Below, piece by piece: positions 15,107 to 64,000 of a stretch of DNA of 64,000 nt. The notes under the pieces were generated by a model, which made no database searches, had not been told where the DNA came from, and saw nothing but the letters and a program-made list of their open reading frames with translations. The position numbers were made by a program, and so were the translations under genes. The stretch comes from Methanosarcinaceae archaeon UBA470. Lineage in GTDB: Archaea > Halobacteriota > Methanosarcinia > Methanosarcinales > Methanosarcinaceae. The DNA is taken from assembly GCA_002508425.1 (NCBI GenBank), contig DAKU01000147.1, positions 44,458 through 108,457 of the forward strand. The letters are read 5' to 3'. Within the stretch, counting starts at the first letter, position 1. Every line of letters begins with the position of its first letter.

Positions 15107-15559
15107 TTTACCTCTTGATTTGATTTTACACAGAAATTAGTATAGTTTCAGACTCAAATTCAGGATAAATCAATTAAAGTGATGATCTTGTAAAATGCTC
15201 ATTGCAGAGCTTCACTTTAATCTCACAAATGTGATATATTTCCAGAACAAAAGAACCAAGTTCTTAATATTATTGCTATCTCTTTTTTTCTGTGTACGAA
15301 TAAATTTGATTATTATTTCGGCTAATTCTAATGAATGATTGCATTGAACGACTTTTTATTATTTTAATCTATTTGCGACTCAAAGACAAGGCAAATTTTG
15401 TAATCTCTTAAAATTACAGGTATACTTTCTACTTACCTATAATTATTCGTTACCATTCGACTATGGACTCTTAATATCTGCAAGATACTGATCTCATATC
15501 TCGAATAGCATCAAAAAGAATATTAACTTAAGAATATTAGTAGAAGTTGGAGGATTATC

Positions 15560-39619: not shown

Positions 39620-40102
39620 TCAATTCAGTGCCCATATCGAGTAGTTCAGTACCGCTGCAAACGATACCCATAGGATGTATGGCACAAGCAGCAACCCTGC
39701 TGTTTTTGATACCCTGTAGAACATCCAGATGTTCACAAGTATCACTATCCACAAAACAACTATCTCCACAAGTCCAAATAGGGGCGATCGCAGGCCAAAG
39801 AACAGCACAGACCACATGAAGTTCAGGAAAAGCTGTATCCCAAACACACCCATGGCTTTTCTTACATCAGCTTGTTCCCATCCCTTCTCCCATACAAGAT
39901 ACAGGGCAATGCCCATCAGCAGGTAGAGTAGAGTCCATACTACCGGAAAAGCCCAGTTAGGAGGTCCAAAGGTAGGCTTTTCGAGTGTAGCGTACCATAT
40001 AGGTATTGCGGGCGTTGTGAATATAGAACCCAGTGAACCGATTACCTGGCAGAGAAGTATTGAGATGAGCAGATGCTTCCAGTTGATTTTAGATGGAGTC
40101 AT
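39620..40102 (-). CDS. tspO: TspO/MBR tryptophan-rich sensory protein (tetrapyrrole-binding membrane protein)
   Basis: ORF 39620..40153. The ATG at 40102 is preferred (160 aa). It has five hydrophobic segments and Trp-rich motifs (WYATLEKPTFGPPNWAFPVVWTLLY, NFMWSVLFF, VPYILWVSFAAVLN). Confidence 0.85.
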   Translation of the reverse strand: MTPSKINWKHLLISILLCQVIGSLGSIFTTPAIPIWYATLEKPTFGPPNWAFPVVWTLLYLLMGIALYLVWEKGWEQADVRKAMGVFGIQLFLNFMWSVLFFGLRSPLFGLVEIVVLWIVILVNIWMFYRVSKTAGLLLVPYILWVSFAAVLNYSIWALN

Positions 40103-40278
40103 AGCAAATTCTCTATTTATGCTGAGGTGGGATGTATAAAAGATGTACTTCATTGATAAAATGTTTGTCGCGGTTTATCTAGAAAATTCTTTTCAATTGT
40201 TAGGAAAGTATGGCATGCTTAACTCTAAAACATAATTAAGTTTCAATAGATGTTATCCTAAAAGTAGTAAATAAATAC

Positions 40279-41754
40279 TCATCTATTTTTTCCCACAAAA
40301 TCCACAAAACTCCTCGCGAATTCTTCATAAGAGCTTGCCACAAGATGAGCATAGCTGCCCAGTGTGTTCTTTACTATGAGTCCGTCCCAGCCGTCGATGA
40401 TGCCGGTGCCACGGGAGAGTTTAATGGCGAATTGTGCATCTGCGGGCAGTTCTGTGACCTCAGAGTGGTGGAATTCGTGGGCTCGGAAGTTGTTCCCAGT
40501 TTTACCTATTACAGTATCAAGAGCTAGGGAACCGATATTGTAGCTTACCACGCGTTTGTGTCCCATGAGAGTATGTCCCGGGAGTGCGCCTACCATTTCG
40601 TGGGTGGATTCGGGCATCTCTGCCATATGGTATGCACCTTTTCCCTTCACTCCGGTTGTGAGCTTTTTGGTAAGGTACATCAGACCGCCACATTCTCCAT
40701 ATATGGGAAGTCCAGCCTCAGATGCTGCTTTTATATCTTCGCGCATGGATGCATTTGCCTCAAGCTCTGCAGCGAACAGTTCAGGATAACCGCCGCCAAT
40801 GTATATTCCATCCACATCCGGCAGATGTTTGTCATGCACCGGGCTGAAATACTTGAGTTGTGCTCCTGCAAGCTCCAGCAGCTCAAGGTTATCATGATAA
40901 TAAAAGTTGAAAGCCTCGTCCAGAGCAATACCGATGACTGGCTTCTCTGCTACTTCTCTCTTTATGAAGGTCGTGTTTTCCGGTCTTGGAAGCGGAGCTG
41001 CCTGCCTGGCAATGTCCAGCACTTTCTCTATGTCCACGTCCTCTGAGATAACATCCCTGATGGTGCTGATCCTGGCATCGAAATCAGGGGATCTGCGGCG
41101 CTCTTCGATGGCAGGCACAAGTCCCAGGTGGCGCATGGAGATCATCATCTCGTTGTTGCGGTGGATGATTCCTATTATGGGTACGCCGGTATAGTGTTCG
41201 ATGGCTTCCTTTGCCTTCATGGCATGCCGCTGACCACCGATATTATTCAATATCACACCTGCAATGTTCACCTGCGGATCAAAAGCCTTGAAACCCGATA
41301 CAATGGCAGCAGCCGAGCGTGTAATGCTGCGCGCGTTAAGTACAAGAATAACAGCACAATTCAGGATCTTCGCTATCTGTGCAGTGCTGCCAATGTCACT
41401 CAAACTCTCCAGGCCCTCATACAGCCCCCGCACACCCTCAATAATGGCAATATCAGCCTCTCCGTCCACTTCACATCCGTGCAGGAACACATCACGCACT
41501 CTCTCCTCATCCATCAGGTAGCCATCGATGTTCCGCGCCCGGTGTCCTGTGATCTCAGTATAGTAGCTGGGGTCGATGTAATCCAGTCCCACCTTGAACG
41601 GCTGCACCTTATGTCCGGCTTTTGAGAGGGCAGCCAGAAGGCCAATAGTAACAGTGGTCTTACCTGAAGAAGAGCTTCCTGCAGAGATGAGAACTCTGGG
41701 AATGTGTTTCTCCCTGTCGGATGCCATAGGTTGCATGTTGGGGGGAGTGCTCAT
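40279..41754 (-). CDS. cfbB: Ni-sirohydrochlorin a,c-diamide synthase (CbiA/CobB-family amidotransferase)
   Basis: 491-aa ORF with the P-loop ISAGSSSSGKTTV, the C-terminal GATase motif GECGGLMYL, and placement next to NifH/NifD-like and Mur-ligase-like genes. Confidence 0.85.
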   Translation of the reverse strand: MSTPPNMQPMASDREKHIPRVLISAGSSSSGKTTVTIGLLAALSKAGHKVQPFKVGLDYIDPSYYTEITGHRARNIDGYLMDEERVRDVFLHGCEVDGEADIAIIEGVRGLYEGLESLSDIGSTAQIAKILNCAVILVLNARSITRSAAAIVSGFKAFDPQVNIAGVILNNIGGQRHAMKAKEAIEHYTGVPIIGIIHRNNEMMISMRHLGLVPAIEERRRSPDFDARISTIRDVISEDVDIEKVLDIARQAAPLPRPENTTFIKREVAEKPVIGIALDEAFNFYYHDNLELLELAGAQLKYFSPVHDKHLPDVDGIYIGGGYPELFAAELEANASMREDIKAASEAGLPIYGECGGLMYLTKKLTTGVKGKGAYHMAEMPESTHEMVGALPGHTLMGHKRVVSYNIGSLALDTVIGKTGNNFRAHEFHHSEVTELPADAQFAIKLSRGTGIIDGWDGLIVKNTLGSYAHLVASSYEEFARSFVDFVGKNR

Positions 41755-41759
41755 GTGGA

Positions 41760-42560
41760 TCAGCGTGTAAGTTCTCTCAATCTTTCATCATCCAGTGATG
41801 TTGGCAATGCAGAATCTGAATTTGACATGATCGCCCGGGCAAGATCACGGTAAACCTGTGAAATGTCCGAATCAGGGGCTTTTTCAAGCACAGAGAAACC
41901 ATCTCTTTCACAGTCCTGCACTATCTGCTCTTTAGGAATGAAAGCAACTAGTTTGCTCCCAATTTCCTCGGCGAACCTGCGCACGATATCCTCTTCCCTT
42001 GTAACGCTTCGAGAGTTGCAGATAACACCGCTAAGACGGGTATCAATCTTGCTAAGTCCCTTGCAGATATTATTTGCAGCGTACAGCGGCATGTATTCGC
42101 CTGATGTCAGCACGTATGCGTCGTTCACAAGCCCTTTCTTGATAGGGGCTACAAAGCCACCACATACGATATCTCCGGGTACGTCATAGATGATAAGGTC
42201 CATCTCATCCATTTCCTTGCACATATCCCTAAGTGTCTTTATGGCCACGATGATGCCACGCCCGGCACATCCAATACCAGGTTCGGGACCACCGACTTCC
42301 ACGCACCTTACATCCCTGTATCCGTGGAAAACAATGTCCCCTTCCTTCACTTTTACACCCTGCCTTAGCAGGTCCAGGATGGTGGGTATTCGTCTGCCGC
42401 CCAAAAGCGTGATGGATGAATCACTCTTTGGGTCACATCCTATAATCATTACTTTGTACCCTTCCTCGGCACATGCGGCAGCAACATTGGATGCAGTGCT
42501 AGATTTCCCAATGCCTCCCTTGCCATAGATAGCTATACGTTTCTGTTTTTCCATATACAT
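41760..42560 (-). CDS. cfbC: Ni-sirohydrochlorin a,c-diamide reductive cyclase, NifH-like ATPase component
   Basis: ORF 41760..42614. The ATG at 42560 removes the overlap with cfbD. It has [12 protein letters not shown] and the cluster ligands CAGRG and CGGF. It is not a nitrogenase: no nifK/nifEN context. Confidence 0.85.
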
Positions 42561-42564
42561 CGCC

Positions 42565-43704
42565 TCATGCAGAACCATCTGACATCTCTCTTGCCATTTC
42601 CCGAAGCGTTGCACCCAGTTCGGACTCCACGATGTGGTTCACTCCTAAAGTCTTTGGATGTAGGTCTATCTCCACTACCACGTGCTTGTGACCCATTTCC
42701 TTCAGAGGCAGCACCTGCCGGGGACCATTTGTAACCGAAATAATTTCCATGTTGCTGATGTGCTCCATGGGTATTGCATGAGGAACGCCGGTGATCACGG
42801 CAAAATCATACTCCGCATATTTCTTAACTATCAGGTCGTCAACCACATTGCCTGCAATGGGATATTCGTCCAGTCCTCCGGTTATTTCGTGTATCTGTAT
42901 ACCTTTTTCCTTCAGGTCGCTCATAATATTGCGGGCATGGTCCCTTACACGCGGCAGGCCAAGTGATTCATCCAGGTTTGCCATGTTAACTACATTTGCG
43001 GAAACTCCCATCAGGGATGCAACTTCGTGTAAAGCCAGTGTGATGTCTGCGAACATATAGCCCGTTTCCTTCTTAGCGTTCATTATCACAATGCCTTTCT
43101 TGCCTTCCCTAAGCAACTCGATGATGCGCTGTGCCACCTTGTACTTCAGGTCTCCTCTTGATGGAGCCAGGTATTCCTTGCTGGCGGCACCGTGGCGTTT
43201 TTCCACTTCCGTTGCCTCTTCCAGGAGCACTTTCTGGCGCTCGAACTCTTCTCTGTCTATAACTCCTACGTCCAGCGCAGATTCCAGGGTGATCAGCACA
43301 CCTTTTGTATTATTTGCATATCCTGCATGCACCTCAACCTCTATGACCGGTACATCAAGGTTGGCATCCATCACCGGCTCATGCAGTTCCTCTCCAATAA
43401 TCATGCTGGCGCACGTCCCAACAACGCCTATCAACTTTGGGTGGAACATCTCATTGACCTTTTCAAGCACTGAAGAAAGCTCCCTGCGCCCTCCGAATAC
43501 AAAACCGTTTTCATCAAGGGCCGTGGTAACTACATGTATCCCATCTTCTTCCAGAAGCCTCGCATGCTTAAAAGAACATCCAGGTGGTCCATGCAATATA
43601 GCAACATCCACATTCAGATCCCTTAGGGTGTACAACGCAGCAACTATCGAACTCGGTCTGGGGTGTATTATAGATATGTCCTTCGCAGCCATGCTATTCT
43701 CCAT
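42565..43704 (-). CDS. cfbD: Ni-sirohydrochlorin a,c-diamide reductive cyclase, NifD/NifE-like component
   Basis: 379-aa ORF with an oxidoreductase/nitrogenase component 1-like pattern (ILHGPPGC), immediately upstream of cfbC. Confidence 0.8.
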
Positions 43705-43833
43705 GGTGTCATATGATTGTTATGATATTTCCTTAAAGAAGTATGATTTTTTACACTTAGTCAAATGCTACTTTTGCATATACTACAGCCTTCTGATATA
43801 AAAGGGCTATTTTATGGGACAGCCCCCATCTTT

Positions 43834-45255
43834 TCAGCGGAAGCACTTCACGCATAGAACAATAATAACTTCAGCAGTACTCTTTTTCCGGGCAAGTTCC
43901 ATTGCACATGTCTTTCCAATGTCAAAACTCTTTGTATAATGGATATTTCCAGTTGCTAGGAGCTTCATCCTCTCGCCCACAAGTATCAGCTCATCCATAT
44001 CCTCCAACCTGCGCCCAACCAGATCGGCAACATCCTCCGGTGGCAGTCCTTCACATACCTGTGCAGCTTCTTCTCCCAGCACCATAATGACCCTTTTCCT
44101 GCTTTTTAAACAATGGTCAAGTGCTTTTTCCACTGAAACTATATCCATTCCAGAGTTAGAGTTATCCAGGAGTCTTATGTCCTCTTCTACCATCTCCTGC
44201 ATCCTTCCCTGCAAACCTCTGAACTGCTGTATTGTTTCTTTCACATTTTTCAGTGGTATCGATATTTCAAAGGCTGCTGCACAGGATGCGGCAAAAGCTG
44301 TCATGTATGACTTTGCATCATATCCCTCTACAAGACAGAATTCAATTATTTCTTCCCCGCATATTATGGAAAAATTATTATTGTGCACGTTCAGGCAATA
44401 ATCACTATTATGAGTTTCATTTTCACCCTTATTCACTATGCTGAATGTACTGATGTTTTCTGATGCAAGTGGTAGGTCCAATTGTTTCAATGCTTTTTTG
44501 CAGTTTTCATTGAGCACAAAGAGTGTATTCTCAGAGCAGTTGAGCAAAGACTTTACCTTTGCTTCACTTGCCATGGATGTTTTGCCTGCGATCATGTAAT
44601 CCATGTCAAAGGTTGTGATTATACCAACACTTCCACATCCTGTGACTCCAAGGGATATCTCGAATATGTATGCTTCTATCTTCTTGTCTAGTGATCCTGC
44701 AATATCCATCACCTGCAGGATGCTCCCCGGAGCAATGCTCAAGCCTTTATGGATCAGCTGGCATACGCCGTCCTCCCATAGTTCCAGCCCCCTGGAAGTG
44801 TGCAGCACAACAGTAAGTTTTCTTGAGATCATATCCGCCAGCAAGGATGCGGTACTAGTCTTTGCCTTGGTGCCTGTAACTTCTATTATAAGGGGGCAGT
44901 TGCCCGTATCTGTGCATGCCAGGATCTCTCCTACGGCTCTGTGATGAGATATTGACGGAATATGTTTATCCCTTGTCTGTCGGAGCATGACATGGTCCGG
45001 ATATAGGTGCACAGGGCTTATCAACAGGTCAAAATCATCAATAAGGCAGCTTTTTTCCATCATCCGGATGCCATCTGCTTCCAGATAACTGCATTGCTCT
45101 ACGGAGAGTGTTCCGTAAACATCCACTCCTGTCACATTGAATTCAAGCTCTTTGAGCTTACGGGCAATGATAACCCCTCCATGTGTCATATCGAGAACAG
45201 CTATATTTTTTATTGCCGGATCGGTAAGGTGACAGTACATGCCCCGAAAAAGCAC
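43834..45255 (-). CDS. cfbE: coenzyme F430 synthetase (Mur-ligase-like)
   Basis: 473-aa ORF with the Mur ligase P-loop VTGTKAKTSTASLL. It heads the cfbE-D-C-B gene string. The exact start is uncertain (several early Met). Confidence 0.8.
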   Translation of the reverse strand: MLFRGMYCHLTDPAIKNIAVLDMTHGGVIIARKLKELEFNVTGVDVYGTLSVEQCSYLEADGIRMMEKSCLIDDFDLLISPVHLYPDHVMLRQTRDKHIPSISHHRAVGEILACTDTGNCPLIIEVTGTKAKTSTASLLADMISRKLTVVLHTSRGLELWEDGVCQLIHKGLSIAPGSILQVMDIAGSLDKKIEAYIFEISLGVTGCGSVGIITTFDMDYMIAGKTSMASEAKVKSLLNCSENTLFVLNENCKKALKQLDLPLASENISTFSIVNKGENETHNSDYCLNVHNNNFSIICGEEIIEFCLVEGYDAKSYMTAFAASCAAAFEISIPLKNVKETIQQFRGLQGRMQEMVEEDIRLLDNSNSGMDIVSVEKALDHCLKSRKRVIMVLGEEAAQVCEGLPPEDVADLVGRRLEDMDELILVGERMKLLATGNIHYTKSFDIGKTCAMELARKKSTAEVIIVLCVKCFR

Positions 45256-54251: not shown

Positions 54252-54265
54252 ATTTTAATATCACC

Positions 54266-54295
54266 TTCTTTTTTCTTTCTTTTTTTTATTTTTGT
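54266..54295 (+). terminator. oligo-T terminator region after the S27ae operon
   Basis: CTTCTTTTTTCTTTCTTTTTTTTATTTTTG starts 15 nt after the stop. Archaeal termination uses T-tracts. Confidence 0.5.
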
Positions 54296-54613
54296 TCTAT
54301 CCTATATTATCTTTAGTTGTATCTATTTGCCAAACAGAAGAATTACGAAATGTTTTTAACTCATGGTAATGTACCTGCCATATATTAGGTGCAGATATAA
54401 CAATTGTTAAATATGCATCTATTCAAATTTATTACTAGGTAATAAATCTGAGCATATACCTTGCAAATGAAGTGGTACGAATAAATAAAAGACAAGGCGA
54501 AACTACAATTATCTCTATGATTGATAGTTGTTTTTCCATTTACCTGAATACGGTTAGGATTTATGAGTCCCTCTTATTGTGTATCGATAAATAACCAAAA
54601 AATGATGAAATAG

Positions 54614-54683
54614 AGATGTGTGAGCACTCCTGCCCGCCGCCAAGCAAGAACAGGAGTGCTTTGCATATTATCGGGGAGATAAC
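54614..54683 (+). promoter_or_regulatory. conserved leader with 10-bp hairpin upstream of CobN-like gene 1
   Basis: Positions 54614-54687 match 59621-59694 at 73 of 74 positions. The stem AGCACTCCTG (54623-54632) / CAGGAGTGCT (54651-54660) encloses the 18-nt loop CCCGCCGCCAAGCAAGAA. The SD GGGGAG at 54673-54678 lies 5 nt before the ATG. Confidence 0.6.
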
Positions 54684-57600
54684 ATGCGACAATATCATGC
54701 GTTGACATTAGCATTAAGCCTTTTGTTGTTAGCGTTGCTGACAACTGTTGCATCGGCAGACGAAAATACACTTACTTTTGTGCTGGGAACATCTGAAAAC
54801 CAGCAATCTTTGGCAAATGCAAGTCTTAGCAGTCAGGCGAACATCCTAATATATAATTATCAGGATGTGCCTGATCTATCAGATTCGAGTATTGTGTTCT
54901 TTGCTTCGATTAACGACAGTGCATATTCAAATCTGACAGTAAATAGCAGTGCCGTCATTTGTGGATACAACCTTACAAATACCTCACTTGTAAACACAGA
55001 AAACGACAATATTACAAAGTATTGGGTATATGGTGGAGACTCCAACATAGCCAATATGATCAGTTACATGGAAAATCAGTTTCTAGATTATTCTTCAACG
55101 GTCTATAATCCCCCGGTAACATCTGAAAATCGAATTAACGTAACCATTATTACCGGAAGCAGTGGAGTAAAATCTGGTTTACTTCTGGCAAATGATGATC
55201 CTTTGGTGAGTAAATACGCTCGGGTCAATGTGGTCAACTCAGTTGATGAGATGCCAATAAGTCTGGTCGCAGAAGACATCATTATGCTTGAAATGCTAAG
55301 TTCCGACTGGATATCATCAGCAACAGAACTTTCTACAGAAGCTATGGAACAAAATAATGCCACTGTATTGACTTTGCACACCAGCTTAATAGAAGGCTTT
55401 GGTAACGTCAATGTGTCATCCGCAGAATATGCAACCATTGGCAAGTACTGGGAGTATAAAGGTGATGAGAACATGCGCCGCCTTGTATTATTCCTTGCTG
55501 CTACCTATAAAGATCCCTCAATACCAGTACTTGATCCTGTTGCAAGATCTGTATACGGTTTTTATCACCCTGATGCCCCTGATATATTTGAAACCACTGC
55601 AGAATATCTGGAATGGTATAATTCGACTGGCAAATATAACCCCAATAACATTACGGTGGGAATACTGGAATATCAAGTTCCTACGGCAGAACTAACATCC
55701 AAGGTGGAAGATGCTCTTATTAGAGAGATAGAGTCAAAAGGATGTAATGCAATGTTCGCCTCCTTTTATGTAAAGGACCCGAATTCAACGGAATATTTCA
55801 TGCCAAATGGTACTCCTGTTGTTGATGTAGTTATTTCACTTAGAAGTTATTCACTGGGACAACCCGATACAAACCTTACTCCTGAAATGGCACTTGAATT
55901 CCTGAAAGAACTTAATGTACCGGTGTTGCATGGCACTACCTGTTATTATGACACTGAAGGTATCACATATAAGGGGTCACAGGCAGAATGGGAAAATACC
56001 AGTATAGGTCTTTCTTCGGGTGACATTGCCCGCAACGTCGTCCTACCTGAGTTTGATGGCATATTTGACCCAATCATCTTAAGCTGGAAGAATAAAGATG
56101 AAAACGGTGTTGCATATAATGTAGACCCTCTTGAAGAGCATGTTGAATGGCTGGTTTCCCGTAGTATCAATCATGCACAGTTGGGTGAAATTCCAAATTC
56201 AGAAAAGAAAGTTGCTGTCCTTTATTACAACCACGGAGGAGGTAAAAATAACTTTGCTGCAGTTTATCTCGATGTTCCGGAAAGCCTTAGTAATTTTGTC
56301 GAAGCTATGAACGCTTCAGGTTATAATACTGGAACAGGGCCAATTCCAAACGAAACAGAACTTTTAGACCTGATGGTCCTTCAGGGTCGAAATGTAGGTA
56401 CTTGGGCACCGGGTGAACTTGAAAGCATGGTTGCTACCGGGAAAGTAGTGCTATGGCCTGTTGAAGAATACATGGAATGGTTCAACGCTCTTCCCAAAGA
56501 AAACAGGGATGAGGTTATTGAGCAATGGGGTCCTGCACCCGGAGAGATAATGGTATATGAAAACTCCTCTGGTAGCTATTTCGTTATTCCACGCATAGAG
56601 TTTGGAAATGTAATACTGGGCCCGCAGCCGACACGTGGATGGGAGCAGAATGAAGAGGCTATGTACCATAATTCTTCACTTCCGCCGCATCATCAATACC
56701 TGGCTTATTATCTGTGGCTCCAGCACGAGTATGGGGCAGATGCTATTGTACATTTCGGAACACATGGTACACAGGAGTGGCTTCCAGGAAAAAATGTAGC
56801 ATTATCCAGATATGACTGGCCTTCAGTTATGGTTGGTGACATGCCTGTGATCTACCCATACATAATGGATGACGTGGGTGAAGGAATACAGGCAAAAAGA
56901 CGTGGTAATGCGCTTATTGTAGACCATTTGACTTCTCCTATAATTGAAGCCGGATTATACGGAGGTTATGAAAACATTTCTGATTACATTACTCAGTACA
57001 ATGATGTGAGCATTGCTGAAAATGTAAAAGCCGAATACAAGGCTCTGATAATTCAGGAATATGCTGAACTTGCTTTGGTAGATGCGCTCGGTCTTGATTC
57101 AGCATATTTGAGTAACACAACTGAAGACCAGTTCGATATATTCCTCGAAGATTCTCTTGAACCTTATTTGGAATCACTCGAAACGGCAAGTATGCCTTAT
57201 GGTATGCACGTTATTGGAGAGCAACCTCCTGCTGAACAAATAATTGGAATGATACGCTTAATGCTCGGTGATGACTATATTGCTCTTATCGAGTCTATTA
57301 ACGGCTCTGCGAATGTATCTACTCGTTTACTGGAAAATGTTCTTCTGAATGGTACATCTATAACTGATGCCCAGGAAGAGATGCTTGGAACAAATAATTC
57401 AAATGTGACGGCTTATCTCGAAGAGGGTGAAACATACTATCAGAATATCTTGGATTGTGATCAGGAAATTCCAAACATATTGCGTGCACTGAATGGTGAA
57501 TATATTTTGCCTGACAGTGGTAACGATCCAATCAGAAGTCCAGGTTCTTTACCAACAGGTATCGATTTCTATTCAATTGATCCACGTACAGTTCCGGGAG

Positions 57601-59228
57601 AAGCCGAGTGGCTGGCAGGTGCAAAGGTTGCTAATCAGACACTTAAATTATATAAGGAAGGCCATGATGGTGCATATCCGGAAACCATATCTTTTATAGC
57701 TTTCTCAACAGAACTTATTCGCAATAGGGGAGTCACTGAATCAGAAGTATTGTATTTACTTGGTGTTGAACCTGCATGGGATTCAAACGGCAGAGTTGAT
57801 CTAGAGGCCTTCAGTGTTATTCCTGAAAGTGAACTAGGAAGACCAAGAATTGATATCCTGTATGTGGCGTCTGGATTGTACAGGGACATGTATCCTGATA
57901 AGCTGGAAATGATAGATTATGCTGTGAGGCTTGCATCTAATGCATCGAACTCCACATATCCGAACTATGTTAAGCAGCATTCTGAATTAATATACCAACA
58001 GTTAATTGCCCAGAATTATACGGCAGAAGAAGCAAAGTTGCTTTCTGAGTCAAGGGTAGTTAGTCGTCAATCAGGAGTTTATGGAACGGGACTTGAAGAT
58101 GCGATCGGTGCAAGCAATACATGGGAAAATGAATCAAAACTTGCAGAATTATACATAGACAATCTGGACAACTTCTATGGAGCAGATATCTGGGATGAAT
58201 CTAATACTGATGTATTTGAAGCTATCCTTGGAACTGTGGATGTTGCTGTAAAGTCAGATTCCACTAACCTGCTGGGTCTTATGGATAATGATGATTTTGT
58301 ATCGTGGTTTGGAGGACTTGCACTTGCAGTTAGGGATGTGTCAGGTGAGACCCCTGAATTGTATGTTAATGACTTCACTGATCCTGAGAACCTATTGACA
58401 GAATCATTGAATACGGTGTTGAGCCGGGAGCTGACTGCCCGTTACTTTAATCCAAGCTGGATCGGAGGAATGATGGGAAGTGGCTATGCAGGAGCCCAGG
58501 AAATGGATAGGTTTGTGGAATTCCTTTGGATGTGGGAAGTTACTACCCCTGATGTTGTCTCGGATGCGTCTTGGGATCAAGTCTATGAGACCTATGTTCT
58601 GGATTCAAAGAACCTTGGGCTTGACGAATTCTTTAGTGAAAATGCATATTCCTATCAGTCTATCGCTGCACAGCTGATTGAAACATCTCGAAAAGGCTAC
58701 TGGGATGCATCAGACGAAGTTGTCCAGAACTTGGTGAAAGAATATGTTGAATCCGTGGTAGAAGATGGTGTAACATGTTGTCACCACACATGCGGTAACC
58801 CCTTGTTGGATGACTACATACAGGGTGTCATGTCTGTTCCGGGTGTTGTGGATGAAGAAACCGCAGCTCAGTACAAACAACTCATGGAAGAAGCAACTAC
58901 AGCGACTGAAACTGAAAGTAGTTCCAGTCACAGCAGCAGTTCCAGTGATAAGAAACTGGAAGTTACCAACCAGGACACAAGCTCTAGATCAAACCAGACT
59001 ACTAGTTCACAGGTAGGTGCAGGTGCAGATCTTAGCAAGCAGGCGCCTGAAACATCCAAGTCAACTCCAGATAACTATGTAGAAGGCTATGAGATGACAA
59101 AAGAAACTGTTTCTCAACCTGAAAGCAACAGCAACAAGTTCTCTGGTTCAGACATAGTAGCCTTTGTATTGGTAGTAGTTGCAGCAGGAGCAGTATTCCT
59201 TGGATTCATGAGAAAGAAGAAAATGTAA
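54684..59228 (+). CDS. secreted, C-terminally membrane-anchored CobN/ChlH (class I chelatase large subunit)-like protein, copy 1
   Basis: 1514-aa ORF with the signal peptide MRQYHALTLALSLLLLALLTTVASA/DE. CobN/ChlH family blocks are HFGTHGTQEWLPGK, LPTGIDFYSIDPR and MPYGMHVIGE. It carries more than two dozen N-x-S/T sequons, a Ser/Thr-rich linker, and a C-terminal TM helix IVAFVLVVVAAGAVFLGF followed by MRKKKM. Confidence 0.85.
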   Translation: MRQYHALTLALSLLLLALLTTVASADENTLTFVLGTSENQQSLANASLSSQANILIYNYQDVPDLSDSSIVFFASINDSAYSNLTVNSSAVICGYNLTNTSLVNTENDNITKYWVYGGDSNIANMISYMENQFLDYSSTVYNPPVTSENRINVTIITGSSGVKSGLLLANDDPLVSKYARVNVVNSVDEMPISLVAEDIIMLEMLSSDWISSATELSTEAMEQNNATVLTLHTSLIEGFGNVNVSSAEYATIGKYWEYKGDENMRRLVLFLAATYKDPSIPVLDPVARSVYGFYHPDAPDIFETTAEYLEWYNSTGKYNPNNITVGILEYQVPTAELTSKVEDALIREIESKGCNAMFASFYVKDPNSTEYFMPNGTPVVDVVISLRSYSLGQPDTNLTPEMALEFLKELNVPVLHGTTCYYDTEGITYKGSQAEWENTSIGLSSGDIARNVVLPEFDGIFDPIILSWKNKDENGVAYNVDPLEEHVEWLVSRSINHAQLGEIPNSEKKVAVLYYNHGGGKNNFAAVYLDVPESLSNFVEAMNASGYNTGTGPIPNETELLDLMVLQGRNVGTWAPGELESMVATGKVVLWPVEEYMEWFNALPKENRDEVIEQWGPAPGEIMVYENSSGSYFVIPRIEFGNVILGPQPTRGWEQNEEAMYHNSSLPPHHQYLAYYLWLQHEYGADAIVHFGTHGTQEWLPGKNVALSRYDWPSVMVGDMPVIYPYIMDDVGEGIQAKRRGNALIVDHLTSPIIEAGLYGGYENISDYITQYNDVSIAENVKAEYKALIIQEYAELALVDALGLDSAYLSNTTEDQFDIFLEDSLEPYLESLETASMPYGMHVIGEQPPAEQIIGMIRLMLGDDYIALIESINGSANVSTRLLENVLLNGTSITDAQEEMLGTNNSNVTAYLEEGETYYQNILDCDQEIPNILRALNGEYILPDSGNDPIRSPGSLPTGIDFYSIDPRTVPGEAEWLAGAKVANQTLKLYKEGHDGAYPETISFIAFSTELIRNRGVTESEVLYLLGVEPAWDSNGRVDLEAFSVIPESELGRPRIDILYVASGLYRDMYPDKLEMIDYAVRLASNASNSTYPNYVKQHSELIYQQLIAQNYTAEEAKLLSESRVVSRQSGVYGTGLEDAIGASNTWENESKLAELYIDNLDNFYGADIWDESNTDVFEAILGTVDVAVKSDSTNLLGLMDNDDFVSWFGGLALAVRDVSGETPELYVNDFTDPENLLTESLNTVLSRELTARYFNPSWIGGMMGSGYAGAQEMDRFVEFLWMWEVTTPDVVSDASWDQVYETYVLDSKNLGLDEFFSENAYSYQSIAAQLIETSRKGYWDASDEVVQNLVKEYVESVVEDGVTCCHHTCGNPLLDDYIQGVMSVPGVVDEETAAQYKQLMEEATTATETESSSSHSSSSSDKKLEVTNQDTSSRSNQTTSSQVGAGADLSKQAPETSKSTPDNYVEGYEMTKETVSQPESNSNKFSGSDIVAFVLVVVAAGAVFLGFMRKKKM

Positions 59229-59248
59229 GAAGACTACAAGGTATCTTT

Positions 59249-59312
59249 GGACAATCCATGATCTTATTGTAGGTTCTGGATTGTTCAATGTATTTTTTAT
59301 TTTCTGTTTTTA
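59249..59312 (+). terminator. 3' hairpin + T-tracts after CobN-like gene 1
   Basis: GGACAATCCA (59249-59258) pairs with TGGATTGTTC (59277-59286), 10 bp including one G-U, followed by AATGTATTTTTTATTTTCTGTTTTT. Confidence 0.55.
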
Positions 59313-59620
59313 AATAATCCTTATTCCTATTGTTTATCGCCCGATTAATTACGAAAGGTTTTTAATACTATGGTATATACCATTCAATTAATAGGATAAA
59401 TACTAACAGTTAATAGTATATACTCGACATATATCCTATAAATACTAATATTACTAAGTATATCTCTATTTGCTTTAAGGTGGTACAATGATAAATGCAA
59501 GCAAAAATATGACAAGCAATCCAAATTTACCTAGCTACACCTACTACACTTTTCTATTTGTCAGAATATGCTTAGCTTTTTCAAGTACCTCTTATTGCTA
59601 ATCGAGAGATAAATGAAAAA

Positions 59621-59690
59621 AGATGTGTGAGCACTCCTGCCCGCCACCAAGCAAGAACAGGAGTGCTTTGCATATTATCGGGGAGATAAC
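59621..59690 (+). promoter_or_regulatory. conserved leader with 10-bp hairpin upstream of CobN-like gene 2
   Basis: Same element as 54614-54683. The stem is 59630-59639 / 59658-59667. The single difference (A at 59646 versus G at 54639) lies in the loop. The SD GGGGAG precedes ATG 59691. Confidence 0.6.
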
Positions 59691-62600
59691 ATGCAACGAA
59701 AATATGTATTTACCTTTATCTTAAGCGTTTTGTTGTTAGCGTTGCTGACAACTGTTGTATCGGCAGATGAACAACAAATAAACACGACTTTCAGTATCAA
59801 TGATGGTTCAAACTTTACAGTTACATCGGCTTTAGGCGATGAAAACGCATCTCTCAATGCATCGCTCATTTCTGAGGCCGGGAATACTATACCAAAAATA
59901 GCTTATGTAGTATCAAGGCCTTACGAAGTAACTTATCTGGAAAAAGTAGCATCTTATCCGGAAATAAGTTCACAGATGAATATTAGTGTATACCTTGGTG
60001 TCTCTTATTCAGATTTAAGTTTTGATCTTAGTGGCAATGACATGATTGTTATGTCAAATCTTGATTCCTATGTAGTCGATAAGATCACTTCAACAGTGAA
60101 CGATGCCAAAACAGATGGTGCGTATATCATCTCAGTTGGAGATACCTTAAAAGGCTATGGTCTGCATAACGTAAATACGTCTGCTCCAGAGTATTCCGAT
60201 ATTGAGCTGTACCTAAAATATGCATCAGAAACAAATTTCTATCACTTGGATACTTATCTTGGGTCAACATTCTTCGGGTTGAATTATTCAATCGAGTCTC
60301 CTCAGGAAAGACCAATATATGGTATTTATCATCCTGCTGCACCCCAAATATATGAAAATCTGACAGATTATCTTTCCTGGTATGATGAGAATGGGGTTTA
60401 CAGTTCCGAAAATTCCACCATTGCTATAATATTTGATAGTTACAGTTATGTGGAAAGGGATATGCCATTGCTTGATTCACTTGTCGAGGAAATCGAAAGT
60501 AATGGGTGCAATGTGATTGTAACAACATACTCTTACAAGGATAATAATTCAATGAGTTACCTGACGATGGATAACAAGTCCATAGCCGATGTAGCCATTG
60601 TAGTTTCCCGTGGATCTCGCCTGCATTATGCTGAGAATGAGCAGGGAATCGCTGATCTTGAGACTTTGAACATTACTGTTATGAACGGTATCCGTTTGTT
60701 CTCCGGTGTCGGTGTGGGGGAATGGGAAAATAGCATTCACGGAGTACCACCTGACCAACAGTATCAGGTAGCATATGCAGAACTTGATGGATTAATCGAA
60801 CCTATTGTCATTAGCGGTAAGGCTACCGATGAAGCAACTGGCATCGAATACAATCAACCTATAGATTATCAGATTGACTGGCTGGTCAAAAGGGCAATAT
60901 CCTGGGCAGAACTGCACGAAAAAGAAAATTCCCAGAAAAATATTATTATTCCCTATTATAATCCTGAAGGTGGTAAAGCCGATGTGGGAGCAGATATTGA
61001 TTACTATCTAGATGCGCAGGCAAGCCTTGCAAACCTGCTGCAGGCCATGAAGGATAGAGGTTATAACACCGGGGAAGCAGAACTACCCAATTCCACAGAA
61101 CTTGCTACCATGATGGTCGAAAAAGGTCATAACGTAGGTAACTGGGCTCCCGGAGAACTTGAAAAATGTGTCGAGAATGGCAGTGCTATACTCATACCTG
61201 AATCTCAGTACATGAGCTGGTTCGAAGAACTTCCGCAAGAGAAACAGGATGAAATGGTCTCAATGTGGGGGGAGGCACCCGGAGACCTCATGGTTTATGA
61301 GAATTCCTCTGGCAAGTATCTGGTCATACCGGTGCTTCAATTTGGTAACATACTTCTTGCACCGGATCCACAAAACGGTTGGTCTTCAAGTGAAGAAGCA
61401 ATGTACAATGATGGCTCATACCCCCCAACTCACCAGTGTTTTGCCTTTTATAAGTACATGTCCAGGGAATACAACGCAGATGCAATGTTCACTATATTCT
61501 CAAGTATTGAACTAATGCCCGGTAAAGAATGCGGACTTTCTGCCAAGGACTGGGGAGCATTATTGATGGAAGATATGCCACAGGTACATGTTCTTCCAAT
61601 GGATGCAGAAGGCGTCTTTGACAAAAGAAGAGCTAATATGCTCATCGTTGACTTCATGACTCCAACACTGGTGCCTGCAGGTCTTTATGAAGAACTTGCT
61701 AACCTGCAACAGGATATCACTTTGTTCAACCAGGCCTCTGATACTGCAGTAAAAGAAACCTATAGGCAGAACATCCTTAACCAGACAGCAGAGCTGAACC
61801 TTGATAGTGACTTGGGTGTTGATCTTGGAGAAATATCCGGCAATACAACTCTAACGGATTCATTCATAGTTGATTTGTCGGATTATTTGCAGGAATTAAA
61901 GACAGCGTATATGCCCTATGGATCTCATGTGCTAGGTGAGGTTCCAGAAGGTGAAAGCCTTATCATGCTCATTAAAGGCATGTTAGGGGACGAGTTCATA
62001 GAACATGTGAACGCTTCAGGCGGAAATGAAGATCTTGCAGTCGCACTTTTGAATGAAACGATATTGAATTCTACTTTTCCTTACGATGCACAAATGATGG
62101 TGTTAGGTCAGAACTCCACGGATGTTGGGAATGACCTCAACTTGTCATTGGAGTATCTGGAAAGGATAAAAGACTGCGATTGTGAAATCACAAAGATACT
62201 GGATGCTCTTGACGGTACTTACATTACACCAGGACCTTCGGGTGATCCTATAAGAAATCCGGATGCTTTGCCAACAGGCAGGGATCTATACACTTTCGAT
62301 GACAGGCTCATTCCAACAAGTGCAGCGTGGACAGTTGGTTCACAGCTTGCGGAAGAATTGCTTGCAACTAAACTTCAGGAAGACGGAGGATATCCAGAGA
62401 AGATCGCCTTCCTATTATGGTCTGTGGAAACCACGCGTAACCAAGGAGTAATGGAATCAGAGATATTCAAACTTCTTGGAGTGGAACCCCAATATGATAG
62501 CAAGAATAGAGTTTCAGGCCTCAGGCTCATAAATTCCACTGAACTTGGCAGGTCAAGGATAGATGTGATGGTAGTTACATCCGGTTTATATCGTGATGTC

Positions 62601-63938
62601 TATCCAAACCAGATACAGCTCCTCGATGAAGCAATAAGGCTGGCTGCATCTGCAGAGAATGATACCTATCCGAATTATGTAAGAGAACATTCCGCTGCAA
62701 CCTATGAGAGCCTTATAGACAACGGATACAATGAAACACTGGCATACAACCTCTCAGTTTCAAGGGTATTCAGTCCATCTTCCGGAGCATATACGCCCGG
62801 CATCCAGGAAGCAATAATGAGTGATACATGGGATAATGCAGATGATATAGCTGATCTCTATATAGACAGGATGGGTTACGTCTATGGTCAGGATATATGG
62901 GGAGAACAATATTCTGATGTTTTCGAAATGAACCTTGCAGATGTGGAAACTGCTATATTCAGCCGTACATCGAATGTTTATGGTGTACTTGACCATACAA
63001 TGGTAGCAGCCTATTTCGGCGGTTTGAGTCTGGCAGTTGAAGAAGCAGGTGGCATTGCACCGGATATGTATATCAATGATCTCAGCAGCTCTGCAGAGAT
63101 AGAAACTTTGAGTGAGTTCTTAAGCAAGGACTTGCGTTCACGTTACTTGAACCCAAGCTGGATAGAGGGTATGATGGGCAACGGGTTTGATGGTACAAGG
63201 TACATGGATTCTGTCTTTGAGGTCATGCGTGTATGGGATGTAGCAACTCCTGAACTGGTCACAGATGATATGTGGAATGAGCTATATGGTACATATTTCG
63301 AGGATCAGTATGAAACAGGAGTTACTGAGTATCTAAAGTCCACAAATCCTTATGCATATGAATCAATGGCTGCAACTGCACTGGAATCTGCCAGGACAGG
63401 TTATTGGGACACATCCGAGGATGTAGTTCAGGATCTTGTGAAAGAATATGTGGAAACAGTTGTTGAAAATGGAGTAACGTGCTGCCATCATACTTGTGGC
63501 AATCCTTCACTGGATGAATTTGTACAGGGTGTAATGTCTGTTCCCGGTGTGGTGGATGAGCAAACCGCTGTTGCATACAAGAATATCGTGGAGGAAGCAA
63601 CTGGACGTGAATCTGTAGAAGGAAGCACTTCCAGTCACAGCAGCAGTAGTTCCAGCGATAAGAAACTGGAAATTACCAACCAGGCTAAAACTTCCGGATC
63701 TAACCAGACTACTGAATCAAAGGTAGGAGCAGGTACAGACCTTAGCCAGCCAGAACCTGAAGGCCAAAAGTCAACTCCTGAGGACTATGTGGAAGGATAT
63801 GAAATGACAACGGAATCTCCCTCCCAGCCGGAAAGCAATAGTTCCACCTTCTCAAGTTCTGATATAGTCGCTATTGTTCTGGTAGCTGGTGCCGCAGGGG
63901 CAGTATTCATCGGATTCACGAGAAGGAGGAAAATATAA
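59691..63938 (+). CDS. secreted, C-terminally membrane-anchored CobN/ChlH-like protein, copy 2 (signature His motif degenerate)
   Basis: 1415-aa ORF with the signal peptide MQRKYVFTFILSVLLLALLTTVVSA/DE. It retains LPTGRDLYTFDDR, MPYGSHVLGE and CCHHTCGNP but has MFTIFSSIELMPGK where copy 1 has HFGTHGTQEWLPGK. It has the same Ser-rich linker and a TM helix IVAIVLVAGAAGAVFIGF followed by TRRRKI. Confidence 0.85.
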   Translation: MQRKYVFTFILSVLLLALLTTVVSADEQQINTTFSINDGSNFTVTSALGDENASLNASLISEAGNTIPKIAYVVSRPYEVTYLEKVASYPEISSQMNISVYLGVSYSDLSFDLSGNDMIVMSNLDSYVVDKITSTVNDAKTDGAYIISVGDTLKGYGLHNVNTSAPEYSDIELYLKYASETNFYHLDTYLGSTFFGLNYSIESPQERPIYGIYHPAAPQIYENLTDYLSWYDENGVYSSENSTIAIIFDSYSYVERDMPLLDSLVEEIESNGCNVIVTTYSYKDNNSMSYLTMDNKSIADVAIVVSRGSRLHYAENEQGIADLETLNITVMNGIRLFSGVGVGEWENSIHGVPPDQQYQVAYAELDGLIEPIVISGKATDEATGIEYNQPIDYQIDWLVKRAISWAELHEKENSQKNIIIPYYNPEGGKADVGADIDYYLDAQASLANLLQAMKDRGYNTGEAELPNSTELATMMVEKGHNVGNWAPGELEKCVENGSAILIPESQYMSWFEELPQEKQDEMVSMWGEAPGDLMVYENSSGKYLVIPVLQFGNILLAPDPQNGWSSSEEAMYNDGSYPPTHQCFAFYKYMSREYNADAMFTIFSSIELMPGKECGLSAKDWGALLMEDMPQVHVLPMDAEGVFDKRRANMLIVDFMTPTLVPAGLYEELANLQQDITLFNQASDTAVKETYRQNILNQTAELNLDSDLGVDLGEISGNTTLTDSFIVDLSDYLQELKTAYMPYGSHVLGEVPEGESLIMLIKGMLGDEFIEHVNASGGNEDLAVALLNETILNSTFPYDAQMMVLGQNSTDVGNDLNLSLEYLERIKDCDCEITKILDALDGTYITPGPSGDPIRNPDALPTGRDLYTFDDRLIPTSAAWTVGSQLAEELLATKLQEDGGYPEKIAFLLWSVETTRNQGVMESEIFKLLGVEPQYDSKNRVSGLRLINSTELGRSRIDVMVVTSGLYRDVYPNQIQLLDEAIRLAASAENDTYPNYVREHSAATYESLIDNGYNETLAYNLSVSRVFSPSSGAYTPGIQEAIMSDTWDNADDIADLYIDRMGYVYGQDIWGEQYSDVFEMNLADVETAIFSRTSNVYGVLDHTMVAAYFGGLSLAVEEAGGIAPDMYINDLSSSAEIETLSEFLSKDLRSRYLNPSWIEGMMGNGFDGTRYMDSVFEVMRVWDVATPELVTDDMWNELYGTYFEDQYETGVTEYLKSTNPYAYESMAATALESARTGYWDTSEDVVQDLVKEYVETVVENGVTCCHHTCGNPSLDEFVQGVMSVPGVVDEQTAVAYKNIVEEATGRESVEGSTSSHSSSSSSDKKLEITNQAKTSGSNQTTESKVGAGTDLSQPEPEGQKSTPEDYVEGYEMTTESPSQPESNSSTFSSSDIVAIVLVAGAAGAVFIGFTRRRKI

Positions 63939-63960
63939 GGCCACTTAATTTCATATTTTG

Positions 63961-64000
63961 GACAATCCCTGATCTTATTGTAGGAACTAACTGGATTGTC
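63961..64000 (+). terminator. 3' hairpin after CobN-like gene 2 (partial)
   Basis: GACAATCC (63961-63968) pairs with GGATTGTC (63993-64000). It is homologous to the copy-1 hairpin, and the window ends at the stem. Confidence 0.4.

Follow-up and report, generated by a model that had tools for sequence, protein, structure and literature searches.

Tandem CobN-like genes of a Methanomethylovorans-like archaeon encode predicted exported, tail-anchored relatives of the haem dechelatase HmuS

What could very large chelatase-like proteins do on the outside of an archaeal cell? The question is raised by a stretch of 64,000 nucleotides (nt) from Methanosarcinaceae archaeon UBA470 (contig DAKU01000147.1, positions 44,458 to 108,457 of the forward strand; this whole stretch is called the window below). 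It carries two tandem open reading frames (ORFs) on its + strand, ORF1 (54684..59228, 1514 amino acids (aa)) and ORF2 (59691..63938, 1415 aa), whose proteins are 45% identical overall. The initial annotation of this DNA described both as giant CobN/ChlH-type chelatase homologues predicted to sit outside the cell, and we confirmed both ORFs at these positions. Their closest homologues (91% identity for ORF1, 94% for ORF2) come from Methanomethylovorans assemblies with matching upstream gene order; the host is a Methanomethylovorans-like member of the Methanosarcinaceae. ORF1 and ORF2 are best seen as two paralogues from the archaeal side of a family of class I chelatase large subunits, the extracytoplasmic HmuS/BtuS type. 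We propose, with a probability of about 60%, that their function is extracellular salvage of metallo-tetrapyrroles.

Firstly, we assigned the two proteins to a family. Their CobN/ChlH-family identity, read from motifs in the initial annotation, holds over the full length of the CobN-Mg_chel domain (Pfam PF02514, gathering cut-off 24.5): residues 254-1346 of ORF1 (55443..58721, +; E=0, 1081 bits, profile positions 2-1089 of 1090) and residues 174-1244 of ORF2 (60210..63422, +; E=2e-294, 980 bits, positions 3-1088 of 1090). The best NCBIfam model is NF004645 "CobN" (1597 positions), whose alignment reaches the C-terminal tail of both ORFs and scores 1302 bits with ORF1 and 1192 bits with ORF2, below its cut-off of 1619; neither ORF reached the cut-off of any NCBIfam CobN or BchH model, those other than NF004645 staying far under theirs. 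Among solved structures, the top match by sequence is for both ORFs HmuS 9d26 (528 bits for ORF1, 436 bits for ORF2), with CobN and ChlH behind. An AlphaFold2 (AF2) model of ORF2 residues 95-1294 has a predicted local distance difference test score (pLDDT) of 90.1 and a predicted template-modelling score (pTM) of 0.88. In Foldseek, this model gave template-modelling (TM) scores of 0.85 to HmuS 9d26, 0.82 to CobN and ~0.72 to ChlH, so that the comparison with ChlH suggested in the initial annotation places ORF2 closer to HmuS. The six-domain head-neck-body fold is predicted for ORF2 by the AF2 model and for ORF1 by sequence match alone.

Secondly, we analysed the topology that the sequences predict. 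A hydropathy scan revealed exactly two hydrophobic segments per protein, one N-terminal and one C-terminal helix. The N-terminal segments, MRQYHALTLALSLLLLALLTTVASA|DE in ORF1 and MQRKYVFTFILSVLLLALLTTVVSA|DE in ORF2, have a positive n-region, a Leu-rich core and small residues at -3/-1 (A-S-A in ORF1, V-S-A in ORF2) preceding Asp-Glu, and neither contains a twin-arginine motif. They are predicted Sec-type signal peptides covering residues 1-25 in both proteins (54684..54758, +, with cleavage predicted after A-S-A; 59691..59765, +). The C-terminal tails (ORF1, 58905..59225, +; ORF2, 63612..63935, +) begin with a Ser/Thr-rich stalk of ~60 residues between the catalytic body and the transmembrane helix (residues 1408-1465 in ORF1, 1308-1366 in ORF2). 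A (Y)VEG(Y/F)EM motif lies within this low-complexity region, ~20 residues before the helix; in both ORFs it reads VEGYEM (1466-1471 in ORF1, 59079-59096; 1367-1372 in ORF2, 63789-63806). The transmembrane helix (1491-1509 and 1392-1410, respectively) and a basic end, RKKKM in ORF1 and RRRKI in ORF2, complete the tail. An NCBIfam scan of the tail for PGF-CTERM or other archaeosortase signals gave the CobN model only, and no PGF-type motif was found; since no sorting signal of this kind matched, we treat the tail as a plain tail anchor.

The two proteins are also rich in N-x(not P)-S/T sequons. ORF1 has 33 and ORF2 has 28, against shuffle expectations of 14.7 +/- 3.4 and 11.9 +/- 3.1; this is 2.2-2.3 times the composition expectation, and 0 of 2000 shuffles were as high as observed. 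At 2.0-2.2 per 100 aa, their density is four times that of 21 other window ORFs (0.50). The 44 proteins of the archaeal clade average 1.89 sequons per 100 aa (observed/expected 2.35), and bacterial anchored relatives and cytoplasmic CobN/ChlH have 0.15-0.44 (observed/expected <1). Selection for N-glycosylation on a surface-exposed protein would produce the pattern of the archaeal clade. The signal peptides, stalks, helices, K/R clusters and more than two dozen sequons per protein listed in the initial annotation are all present. By sequence rules, by what the family conserves throughout and by the parallel with HmuS, ORF1 and ORF2 very probably leave the cytoplasm and stay tethered to the membrane on its outer side.

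Is such a location exceptional for the family, as the initial annotation held? An exhaustive HMMER search with the ORF2 domain matched 4031 cluster representatives. The best 150 of these include 124 full-length proteins: 107 carry an N-terminal hydrophobic segment, 89 end in a C-terminal helix with a basic tail, and a single one lacks both. Nearly all CobN-like proteins recovered from Methanosarcinales, ANME-2, Methanothrix, Methanocalculus, Archaeoglobaceae, Syntrophorhabdus and Trichlorobacter lovleyi likewise have this signal peptide and tail anchor, and the same architecture is seen in Bacteroides HmuS. HmuS is a membrane-bound CobN homologue that strips iron from haem (PMC12583661), and its signal peptide, terminal helices and periplasmic exposure have been described (PMC13227078); the family name BtuS, as cited in PMC6460266, was given two decades ago with the predicted role "salvage of metalloporphyrins". 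An outside-facing class I chelatase body thus has precedent in HmuS/BtuS, and the central phenomenon is no longer a surprise. In a proteome study, M. barkeri homologues go under the name "CobN-like chelatase BtuS" and show a response to the source of iron and sulfur (PMC10846266). The HmuS structure paper calls it unclear how archaea use their many HmuS/CobN/ChlH homologues and notes that these species are without complete hmu operons (PMC12583661).

Within this family, the archaeal proteins stand together. In a neighbour-joining tree, indicative only as a distance method with a midpoint root, the archaeal subfamilies form one clade, which the T. lovleyi protein adjoins and which leaves Bacteroides HmuS, CobN and ChlH outside. 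Four elements mark the clade and are all found in both ORFs: the signal peptide, a CCHHxC-type cluster, the stalk with VEG(Y/F)EM, and the C-terminal transmembrane helix with its basic tail. They are present in nearly all archaeal and deltaproteobacterial 'BtuS-like' members, including those of T. lovleyi and Syntrophorhabdus. The cluster, CCHHTC in both ORFs (58776..58793, +, in ORF1), lies in the C-terminal extension beyond the Pfam domain and is conserved in the archaeal clade, with CCC(M/V)VCC in Methanothrix and CCDHTC in T. lovleyi; it is absent from HmuS.

Could the two proteins be ordinary cobaltochelatase CobN subunits of cobalamin biosynthesis, their terminal hydrophobic segments being irrelevant? 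Homologues are named 'cobaltochelatase subunit CobN' in the source databases, NF004645 aligns end to end, and ORF1 has a CobN-like DxDD. CobN of the CobNST complex (M. tuberculosis 7c6o; P. denitrificans) shares the Pfam family with both ORFs, the fold with ORF2 as modelled, and HxGxHG and DxDD with ORF1, but it is cytoplasmic, soluble and about 1250 residues long, lacks signal peptide, anchor and stalk, and needs the AAA+ partners CobS/CobT. ChlH/BchH (Synechocystis 4zhj/6ysg) likewise shares the superfamily, the overall architecture and, with ORF1, HFGTHG; it differs in being cytoplasmic or plastidic, in working with ChlI/ChlD and ATP, in its own N-terminal domain (PF11965) and in having no transmembrane helix, stalk or sequon enrichment. 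No ChlI/ChlD/CobS/CobT-type gene was found among the scanned window ORFs of at least 150 aa, seven such ORFs having been left out of the scan: six that, to judge by position and N-terminus, encode translation factors, RNA polymerase subunits and an adenosylhomocysteinase, and one 186-aa ORF at 21826-22386. Moreover, both NCBIfam scores fall under the cut-off, the signal peptide, anchor, stalk and sequon enrichment are all in place, relatives hold up to three to five CobN-like paralogues in a single locus, and methanogens make corrinoids by a different route, the anaerobic early-cobalt one with CbiX-type chelatases. The explanation is already contradicted and we give it almost no chance; ORF1 and ORF2 are not CobN in the functional sense, and canonical cytoplasmic chelatases with AAA+ partners are very unlikely, as had been argued from the topology.

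Thirdly, we examined the catalytic motifs. The HFGTHG motif of ORF1 (residues 690-695; 56751..56768, +) is kept, and its His694 is equivalent to HmuS His-538, reported to be essential and invariant across the superfamily (PMC12583661). Further on, MDNDDFVSWFGG (58281..58316, +) has Asp1204 at the position of HmuS His-1209 and Ser1207 at that of Glu-1212; its DNDDFVSWFGG, with DxDD, is close to the motif of true CobN (DSDDYFQFHGG) and to that of the T. lovleyi protein, and is CobN-like, not HmuS-like. The initial annotation had placed HFGTHG..EWLPGK in both proteins, which is right for ORF1; ORF2 has FTIFSSIELMPGK in its place (61488..61526, +), with a two-residue deletion and both histidines lost, so that the HFGTHG positions read FTIFSS. 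In LDHTMVAAYFGG of ORF2 (62988..63023, +), His1102 is invariant in the subfamily and the HmuS His-1209 position is Met1104.

This departure is a property of a whole subfamily. The replacement of HFGTHG..EWL by F(T/S)IFSSIELM, with the two-residue deletion, is found in 18/18 ORF2-type members, which come from Methanosarcinaceae, ANME-2, Methanothrix, Methanocalculus and Syntrophorhabdus; the ORF1-type subfamily is confined, among the homologues recovered, to Methanosarcinaceae. The ORF2-type proteins are also altered at Q648, R651, Y724 and A737 (ORF1 numbering), positions conserved in at least 31 of 34 other aligned members, and they have invariant residues of their own (His1102, Asp435, Arg456, Asp1167 and Tyr1171). 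Over 130 aligned sequences (124 cluster representatives and six references, ORF2 among them), the histidine motif is lost in ~18. By the alignment, the ORF2-type subfamily appears old and conserved; in the AF2 model the fold of ORF2 is intact despite the motif loss, and the change looks like conserved remodelling, which sets ORF2 apart from a pseudogene. Such remodelling speaks for binding or an adaptor function, or else for another chemistry based on other ligands.

Such a loss invites the view that one or both proteins are not enzymes at all, and serve instead as surface receptors, hand-over proteins or scaffolds passing a tetrapyrrole or metal to a transporter, or only as envelope-building material. 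The uniform disappearance of both histidines along with the changes at other conserved positions, its extent over the wider alignment, and the fact that the ORF2-type subfamily is the one most often directly adjoining the membrane module described below would all fit. Yet ORF1 retains the catalytic motif, the pocket region of the ORF2-type proteins is highly conserved around its own invariants, as if remodelled and not decayed, and a 1400-aa six-domain fold would be costly for a mere scaffold. The purely structural envelope role that the initial annotation had entertained found nothing in its favour, whereas capture of metals or tetrapyrroles, also put forward there, is plausible. We consider a non-enzymatic role for one or both proteins improbable. 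Under the salvage reading that we prefer, ORF1 would be the candidate enzyme, and ORF2 either a paralogue that binds or serves as adaptor, or an enzyme that uses other ligands.

Which genes, then, could work with these proteins in place of AAA+ ATPases? The window ends 62 nt past ORF2. The initial annotation had noted that partner genes are missing; this stands for AAA+ types among the window ORFs scanned but otherwise looks like a product of where the window stops. In six related genomes the site after rpS24e-rpS27ae continues with genes for DUF2162, MotA/ExbB and DUF2149 proteins and another CobN-like gene, and by this synteny it is quite likely that the DUF2162-MotA/ExbB-DUF2149 module directly follows the window in the present genome. 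The survey of Methanosarcinales envisaged in the initial annotation found signal-peptide-bearing CobN homologues to be widespread there, with this module as neighbour. It adjoins CobN-like genes in Methanomethylovorans, Methanosarcina (including M. acetivorans C2A, AE010299.1, about 402-414 kb), Methanolobus, Methanothrix, Methanocalculus, Archaeoglobaceae and T. lovleyi; in Syntrophorhabdus, MotA/ExbB and DUF2149 genes adjoin the CobN-like gene and DUF2162 was not detected. A profile search with DUF2149 toward Bacteroidota returned solely archaeal proteins among the 120 matches listed; tblastn of DUF2149 against plasmids found loci of Bacteroides, Prevotella and T. lovleyi. The hmu operon of Bacteroidota encodes its MotA/TolQ/ExbB protein as HmuU and its DUF2149 protein as HmuV (PMC11681262).

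The MotA/ExbB gene is followed, with overlapping start, by that for DUF2149, whose single helix contains an invariant Asp (ANLFD) and which has a small domain on the outside. DUF2162 (a 'predicted transporter'; 14641-15327 in locus L005, and homologues; loci collected from other genomes bear L numbers) has an invariant PCPxC, His73 and Lys21 across archaea and T. lovleyi. We note that these Cys, His and Lys residues are reminiscent of soft-metal sites in membrane transporters. The arrangement recalls the TonB-ExbB-ExbD and Tol-Pal systems, where a MotA/TolQ/ExbB-family gene also precedes an overlapping one for a small single-helix protein with an invariant Asp in the helix, and where a long low-complexity linker carries the client away from the membrane. 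It differs from them in that archaea have no TonB, outer membrane or receptor, in that DUF2149 has no significant similarity to ExbD, and in that the putative archaeal client would be anchored by its C-terminus and not its N-terminus; the coupling itself is something we infer.

The closest bacterial parallel is the cluster on pGLOV01 of Trichlorobacter (Geobacter) lovleyi SZ, which comprises genes for a TonB-dependent receptor, DUF2162, MotA/ExbB, DUF2149 and a CobN-like protein (Glov_3671). In the tree the latter is, of the bacterial proteins, the one nearest to the archaeal clade; it is accompanied by the same three-gene module including DUF2162, and resembles ORF1 in H(I)GTHG, DNDDFFQYLGG and CCDHTC as well as in a tail made of VEGFEM, a transmembrane helix and RR. 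The cluster differs from the archaeal ones in being bacterial, with an outer-membrane receptor, in its cobamide-gene setting with two cobalamin riboswitches, and in lying right beside a separate and complete ExbB-ExbD-TonB set. To our knowledge, archaea have neither an outer membrane nor TonB-dependent receptors. The HmuS papers depict the MotA/ExbB-DUF2149 pair as energising the outer-membrane receptor. Because its linkage to CobN-like genes persists in archaea, which lack an outer membrane, and in T. lovleyi beside a separate TonB set, it is unlikely that the pair exists only for that purpose; the pair is more likely to work for the CobN-like protein or to help import the product of that protein. 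As for AAA+ partners, the T. lovleyi genome has no CobS/CobT (PMC3403914).

The tails provide a further hint. The VEGYEM-type motif is kept in all archaeal subfamilies, in Syntrophorhabdus and in T. lovleyi, with the variants VEGQVM and VKGYKI in Methanothrix and Archaeoglobaceae, and one tail design (stalk, motif, helix, basic residues) is common to paralogues otherwise 35-45% identical. Since all paralogues share this juxtamembrane motif and tail, a common membrane partner is suggested; VEGYEM as its docking site would be the simplest reading of the common tail. Recent gene conversion of the C-terminal tails was considered and rejected, identity at third codon positions being only about 0.6.

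On the salvage reading, the following sequence of events can be proposed. Each protein would be exported via Sec and N-glycosylated, and its C-terminal helix and Ser/Thr-rich stalk would hold it on the outer face of the cytoplasmic membrane. There it would handle a metallated tetrapyrrole, removal of the metal being the most likely reaction, as HmuS performs on haem. The three-gene membrane module would act as partner instead of AAA+ ATPases, with DUF2162 as candidate permease, a MotA/ExbB-type proton channel, and DUF2149 contributing its single helix with the invariant Asp.

How close are these proteins to HmuS itself? With HmuS (BtuS1/BtuS2; B. thetaiotaomicron 9d26/9p4s, P. gingivalis PG1553, B. 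fragilis) they share the class I chelatase six-domain fold, an N-terminal signal or anchor, a C-terminal transmembrane helix and, by prediction, a body outside the cytoplasm, a C-terminal extension beyond the Pfam domain, the lack of an AAA+ partner, HFGTHG (in ORF1) and, as seen in the relatives' loci, MotA/ExbB (HmuU) and DUF2149 (HmuV) neighbours. HmuS Ser-1014 and Ser-1067, two serines proposed to bind the haem propionates, are kept in both ORFs (Ser1008 and Ser1063 in ORF1). The archaeal loci differ in having no HmuY or HmuR, as expected where there is no outer membrane, in having DUF2162 as third module gene where Bacteroides has HmuT, and in the CCHHTC cluster, the VEGYEM motif, the heavy sequon enrichment and the multi-paralogue arrays.

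Several findings weigh against our reading. Aligned to HmuS, neither ORF has the His-1209/Glu-1212 pair of LSLDHxxEFMGG; at the head/neck haem site of HmuS (Met-79 and His-254-Gly-Arg), in a region where the alignment is less certain, both have Leu/Ser-type residues; and the Met-rich insertion of ~120 residues in domain IV of HmuS is missing, ORF1 spanning HmuS 690-930 with residues 853-924 (~70 residues, not Met-rich). Because these ligands and the insertion are missing, haem dechelation is not simply transferable to ORF1 and ORF2, and since the defining HmuS motifs are not found in them, they are, by their sequences, not HmuS in the strict sense. ORF2 furthermore lacks a histidine reported as invariant and essential. 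As to the module, tblastn of DUF2162, MotA/ExbB, DUF2149 and ZIP proteins found no match in the window, and the last 100 nt of the window (of which 62 nt follow ORF2) are too divergent from the sequence after the ORF2 orthologue of L005 to show synteny. The identification of Bacteroides HmuT as a DUF2162 protein was rejected (no Pfam match for HmuT; hhalign probability 0.4%), and, HmuT not being detectably related to DUF2162, we do not equate the archaeal module with the whole of HmuTUV. DUF2149 could not be shown to be ExbD-like (hhalign 0.2%, in the helix Asp region only; no PDB profile match), and its AF2 model (pLDDT 57) is too poor for a fold search. HmuS itself works in vitro with NADH and membranes, no proton-motive requirement having been demonstrated (PMC12583661, PMC13227078). 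Lastly, the extracytoplasmic localisation, glycosylation and activity of the archaeal members are predictions.

The in vitro behaviour of HmuS and the failure to link DUF2149 to ExbD would suit an arrangement in which the proteins act outside, the module is only a co-regulated transporter of the product and a reductant drives the reaction; the invariant PCPxC and His of DUF2162, such as a metal permease might have, would suit it too. We regard this as unlikely, considering that MotA/ExbB keeps its link to CobN-like genes in archaea, where outer membrane and TonB-dependent receptor are both absent, and in T. lovleyi next to a separate ExbB-ExbD-TonB set, and that the conserved VEGYEM and tail of all paralogues suggest a common membrane partner. 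At the other end lies a bolder, and doubtful, proposal: that methanogens and some anaerobic bacteria run an extracellular chelatase or dechelatase machine driven by proton-motive force, in which a MotA/ExbB-DUF2149 stator replaces the AAA+ motor. The stator would grip the VEGYEM and transmembrane tail of interchangeable CobN-like ectodomains and power the removal of Co, Ni or Fe from corrinoids, F430 or haem of the environment, or the insertion of these metals; DUF2162 or a ZIP protein would import the metal, ORF2-type proteins would be the substrate-capturing partners, and a new metal- or tetrapyrrole-responsive leader RNA would hide the ribosome-binding site and set expression.

We then considered which substrate the salvage reading would imply. 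The T. lovleyi cluster lies among cobamide genes, and directly upstream of its TonB-dependent receptor are two tandem cobalamin riboswitch aptamers (L028 5005-5196 and 5297-5471; 107 and 65 bits). By virtue of this setting and these riboswitches, the nearest bacterial relative appears tied to corrinoid or cobalt metabolism. An Rfam scan of the archaeal loci found no cobalamin riboswitch. ZIP-family metal permease genes adjoin some archaeal and Syntrophorhabdus clusters (L004, L006, L023), and an ArsR-type regulator is adjacent in Methanosarcina. For ORF1, we place cobalt/corrinoid somewhat ahead of iron/haem and nickel/F430.

Haem would be the substrate if both proteins were straightforward archaeal HmuS orthologues, that is, dechelatases taking iron from environmental haem. 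HmuS is their top PDB match in sequence and fold, HmuU- and HmuV-type genes are linked, and the M. barkeri homologues change with the iron source (PMC10846266). Set against this are the missing haem ligands, LSLDHxxEFMGG motif and Met-rich insertion, the loss of the His-538 equivalent in ORF2, and the grouping of the archaeal clade with the B12-riboswitch-controlled T. lovleyi protein and not with Bacteroides HmuS. In addition, the HmuS-like FDHVYEFFGG sits in a different archaeal subfamily (L008_4265, L015_999), outside the window. There is thus little chance, in our estimate, that ORF1 and ORF2 are plain haem dechelatases. As a third subfamily carries this HmuS-type motif, the CobN-like subfamilies may divide different metallo-tetrapyrroles among them.

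This third archaeal subfamily keeps the His and Glu in its FDHVYEFFGG and has H(F/M)GRHG; its members include L008 4292-9550 (L008_4265), L015 999-6600 (L015_999), L024, L025 996-6400 and L026 from 7487 onward. They have a large insertion at the breaks of the tblastn alignments, which may be analogous to the Met-rich insertion of HmuS, and some start with CarboxypepD_reg-like repeats.

With respect to the literature searched, the new elements are the archaeal S-U-V linkage, the histidine-less subfamily, the common tail motif, the variable first slot of the site and the leader RNA, the last two being described below. The archaeal proteins share the outside-facing anchored architecture and keep the S-U-V core of hmu without its outer-membrane parts, and they have diversified into subfamilies, one of them without the supposedly essential histidine; this addresses the question of archaeal HmuS/CobN/ChlH homologues explicitly left open by the field (PMC12583661). 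The MotA/ExbB-DUF2149 linkage argues that the pair serves the chelatase-like protein itself and not an outer-membrane receptor, which bears on the Bacteroidota system too. Methanogen growth needs much Ni (for F430), Co (for corrinoids) and Fe, and extracellular salvage would matter for trace-metal ecology, digesters and methane mitigation. Since M. acetivorans C2A, which is genetically tractable, has the system too, the question is directly testable.

The genomic site itself varies among relatives. Upstream of ORF1 lie the housekeeping genes eIF2-gamma, RpoE', DUF359, rpS24e and rpS27ae, and a megablast search of ORF1 against plasmids gave zero matches. The window (54252-64000) has the two-gene state, ORF1-type plus ORF2-type. 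L001-L003 (L001 9144-24114) have an ORF1 orthologue, DUF2162, MotA/ExbB, DUF2149 and CobN-like genes of 1716 and 1753 aa; L005 (9411-24248) has an ORF2 orthologue, the module and a 1717-aa CobN-like gene; L037 (2733-15623) has a 1719-aa paralogue, the module and a 1716-aa CobN-like gene. In L038 and L039 (L038 6494-15630) there is no first gene: a leader and a stop-containing signal-peptide remnant are followed by the three-gene module and a 1714-aa CobN-like gene. Methanolobus mangrovi has the module and a 1696-aa CobN-like gene, and L040 (8286-15695) has the same site. The module is the constant part of the site, along with the 1716-aa CobN-like gene, and the first slot is variable, holding zero, one or two genes from three subfamilies.

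Both genes are preceded by the same leader. The 73-nt leaders of ORF1 (54614..54686, +; 86 bits with a covariance model) and ORF2 (59621..59693, +; 85 bits) differ by a single base, and the similarity reaches about 140 nt upstream. Each contains two hairpins and ends at the ATG: P1 is a 10-bp hairpin with a conserved 18-nt loop (..GCCGCCAAGCAA..), and P2 a 5-bp hairpin (TTATC/GATAA) whose loop is the Shine-Dalgarno-like GGGGA and which ends three bases before the ATG. Minimum-free-energy folding reproduces P1 and P2 (z=-2.9). In 13 copies from three genera, 93% of cells are paired, versus 36-51% in slid controls, and 8/15 pairs have changed on both sides, which 0 of 500 shuffles reach. The covariance model gave 23 clear matches in the loci and three in metagenomes, all before signal-peptide CobN-like genes or their remnants, and no further match in the window; the three metagenome instances are the true ones among 8 matches of a scan for the leader motif. 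Rfam showed no known RNA family near ORF1/ORF2 or in the archaeal loci. The leader is previously undescribed and, on this sequence evidence, a candidate translational control element common to the paralogues.

Its hosts are Methanomethylovorans, Methanolobus and Methanococcoides, and the loci of Methanosarcina and Methanothrix showed no copy. Copies lie at L001 9497-9569 and 16203-16278, L005 9931-10003 and 16361-16436, L007 3407-3478, L008 4223-4294 and 9767-9838, L009 1742-1813, L016 3060-3132 and 9574-9645, L022 5112-5184, L026 7415-7489, L037 3085-3157 and 10400-10475, and L038 6968-7040 and 10413-10488. In Methanolobus, a short signal-peptide ORF with a premature stop (MQCKYIICLILSF...*; L008 9836-9890, L016 9643-9750, L022 5182-5320) comes after the leader of ORF2-type genes, and the ORF2-type gene starts ~120 nt further on with a different N-terminus; the short ORF may be an upstream ORF or the relic of a rearrangement. 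In the window, the leader and signal-peptide DNA of ORF1 and ORF2 are nearly identical, unlike the C-terminal tails. Near-identical DNA at the 5' end and a conserved tail at the 3' end could act as recombination handles for ectodomain swaps.

Elsewhere in the window, on the - strand 9 kb upstream of ORF1, cfbB, cfbC, cfbD and cfbE of coenzyme F430 biosynthesis (40279-45255) score above the NCBIfam cut-offs, and a TspO-like gene (39620-40153, -; E=9e-37, below cut-off) directly adjoins cfbB. TspO is a family of tryptophan-rich, tetrapyrrole-binding membrane proteins. A functional link of the cfb genes to ORF1/ORF2 was set aside, housekeeping genes lying between them and the cfb genes being on the opposite strand. 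At 38024-39520 (-), the window also encodes a disaggregatase-related beta-helix protein (Disaggr_assoc, Beta_helix, NosD), a predicted surface protein with an N-terminal signal or lipobox-like sequence.

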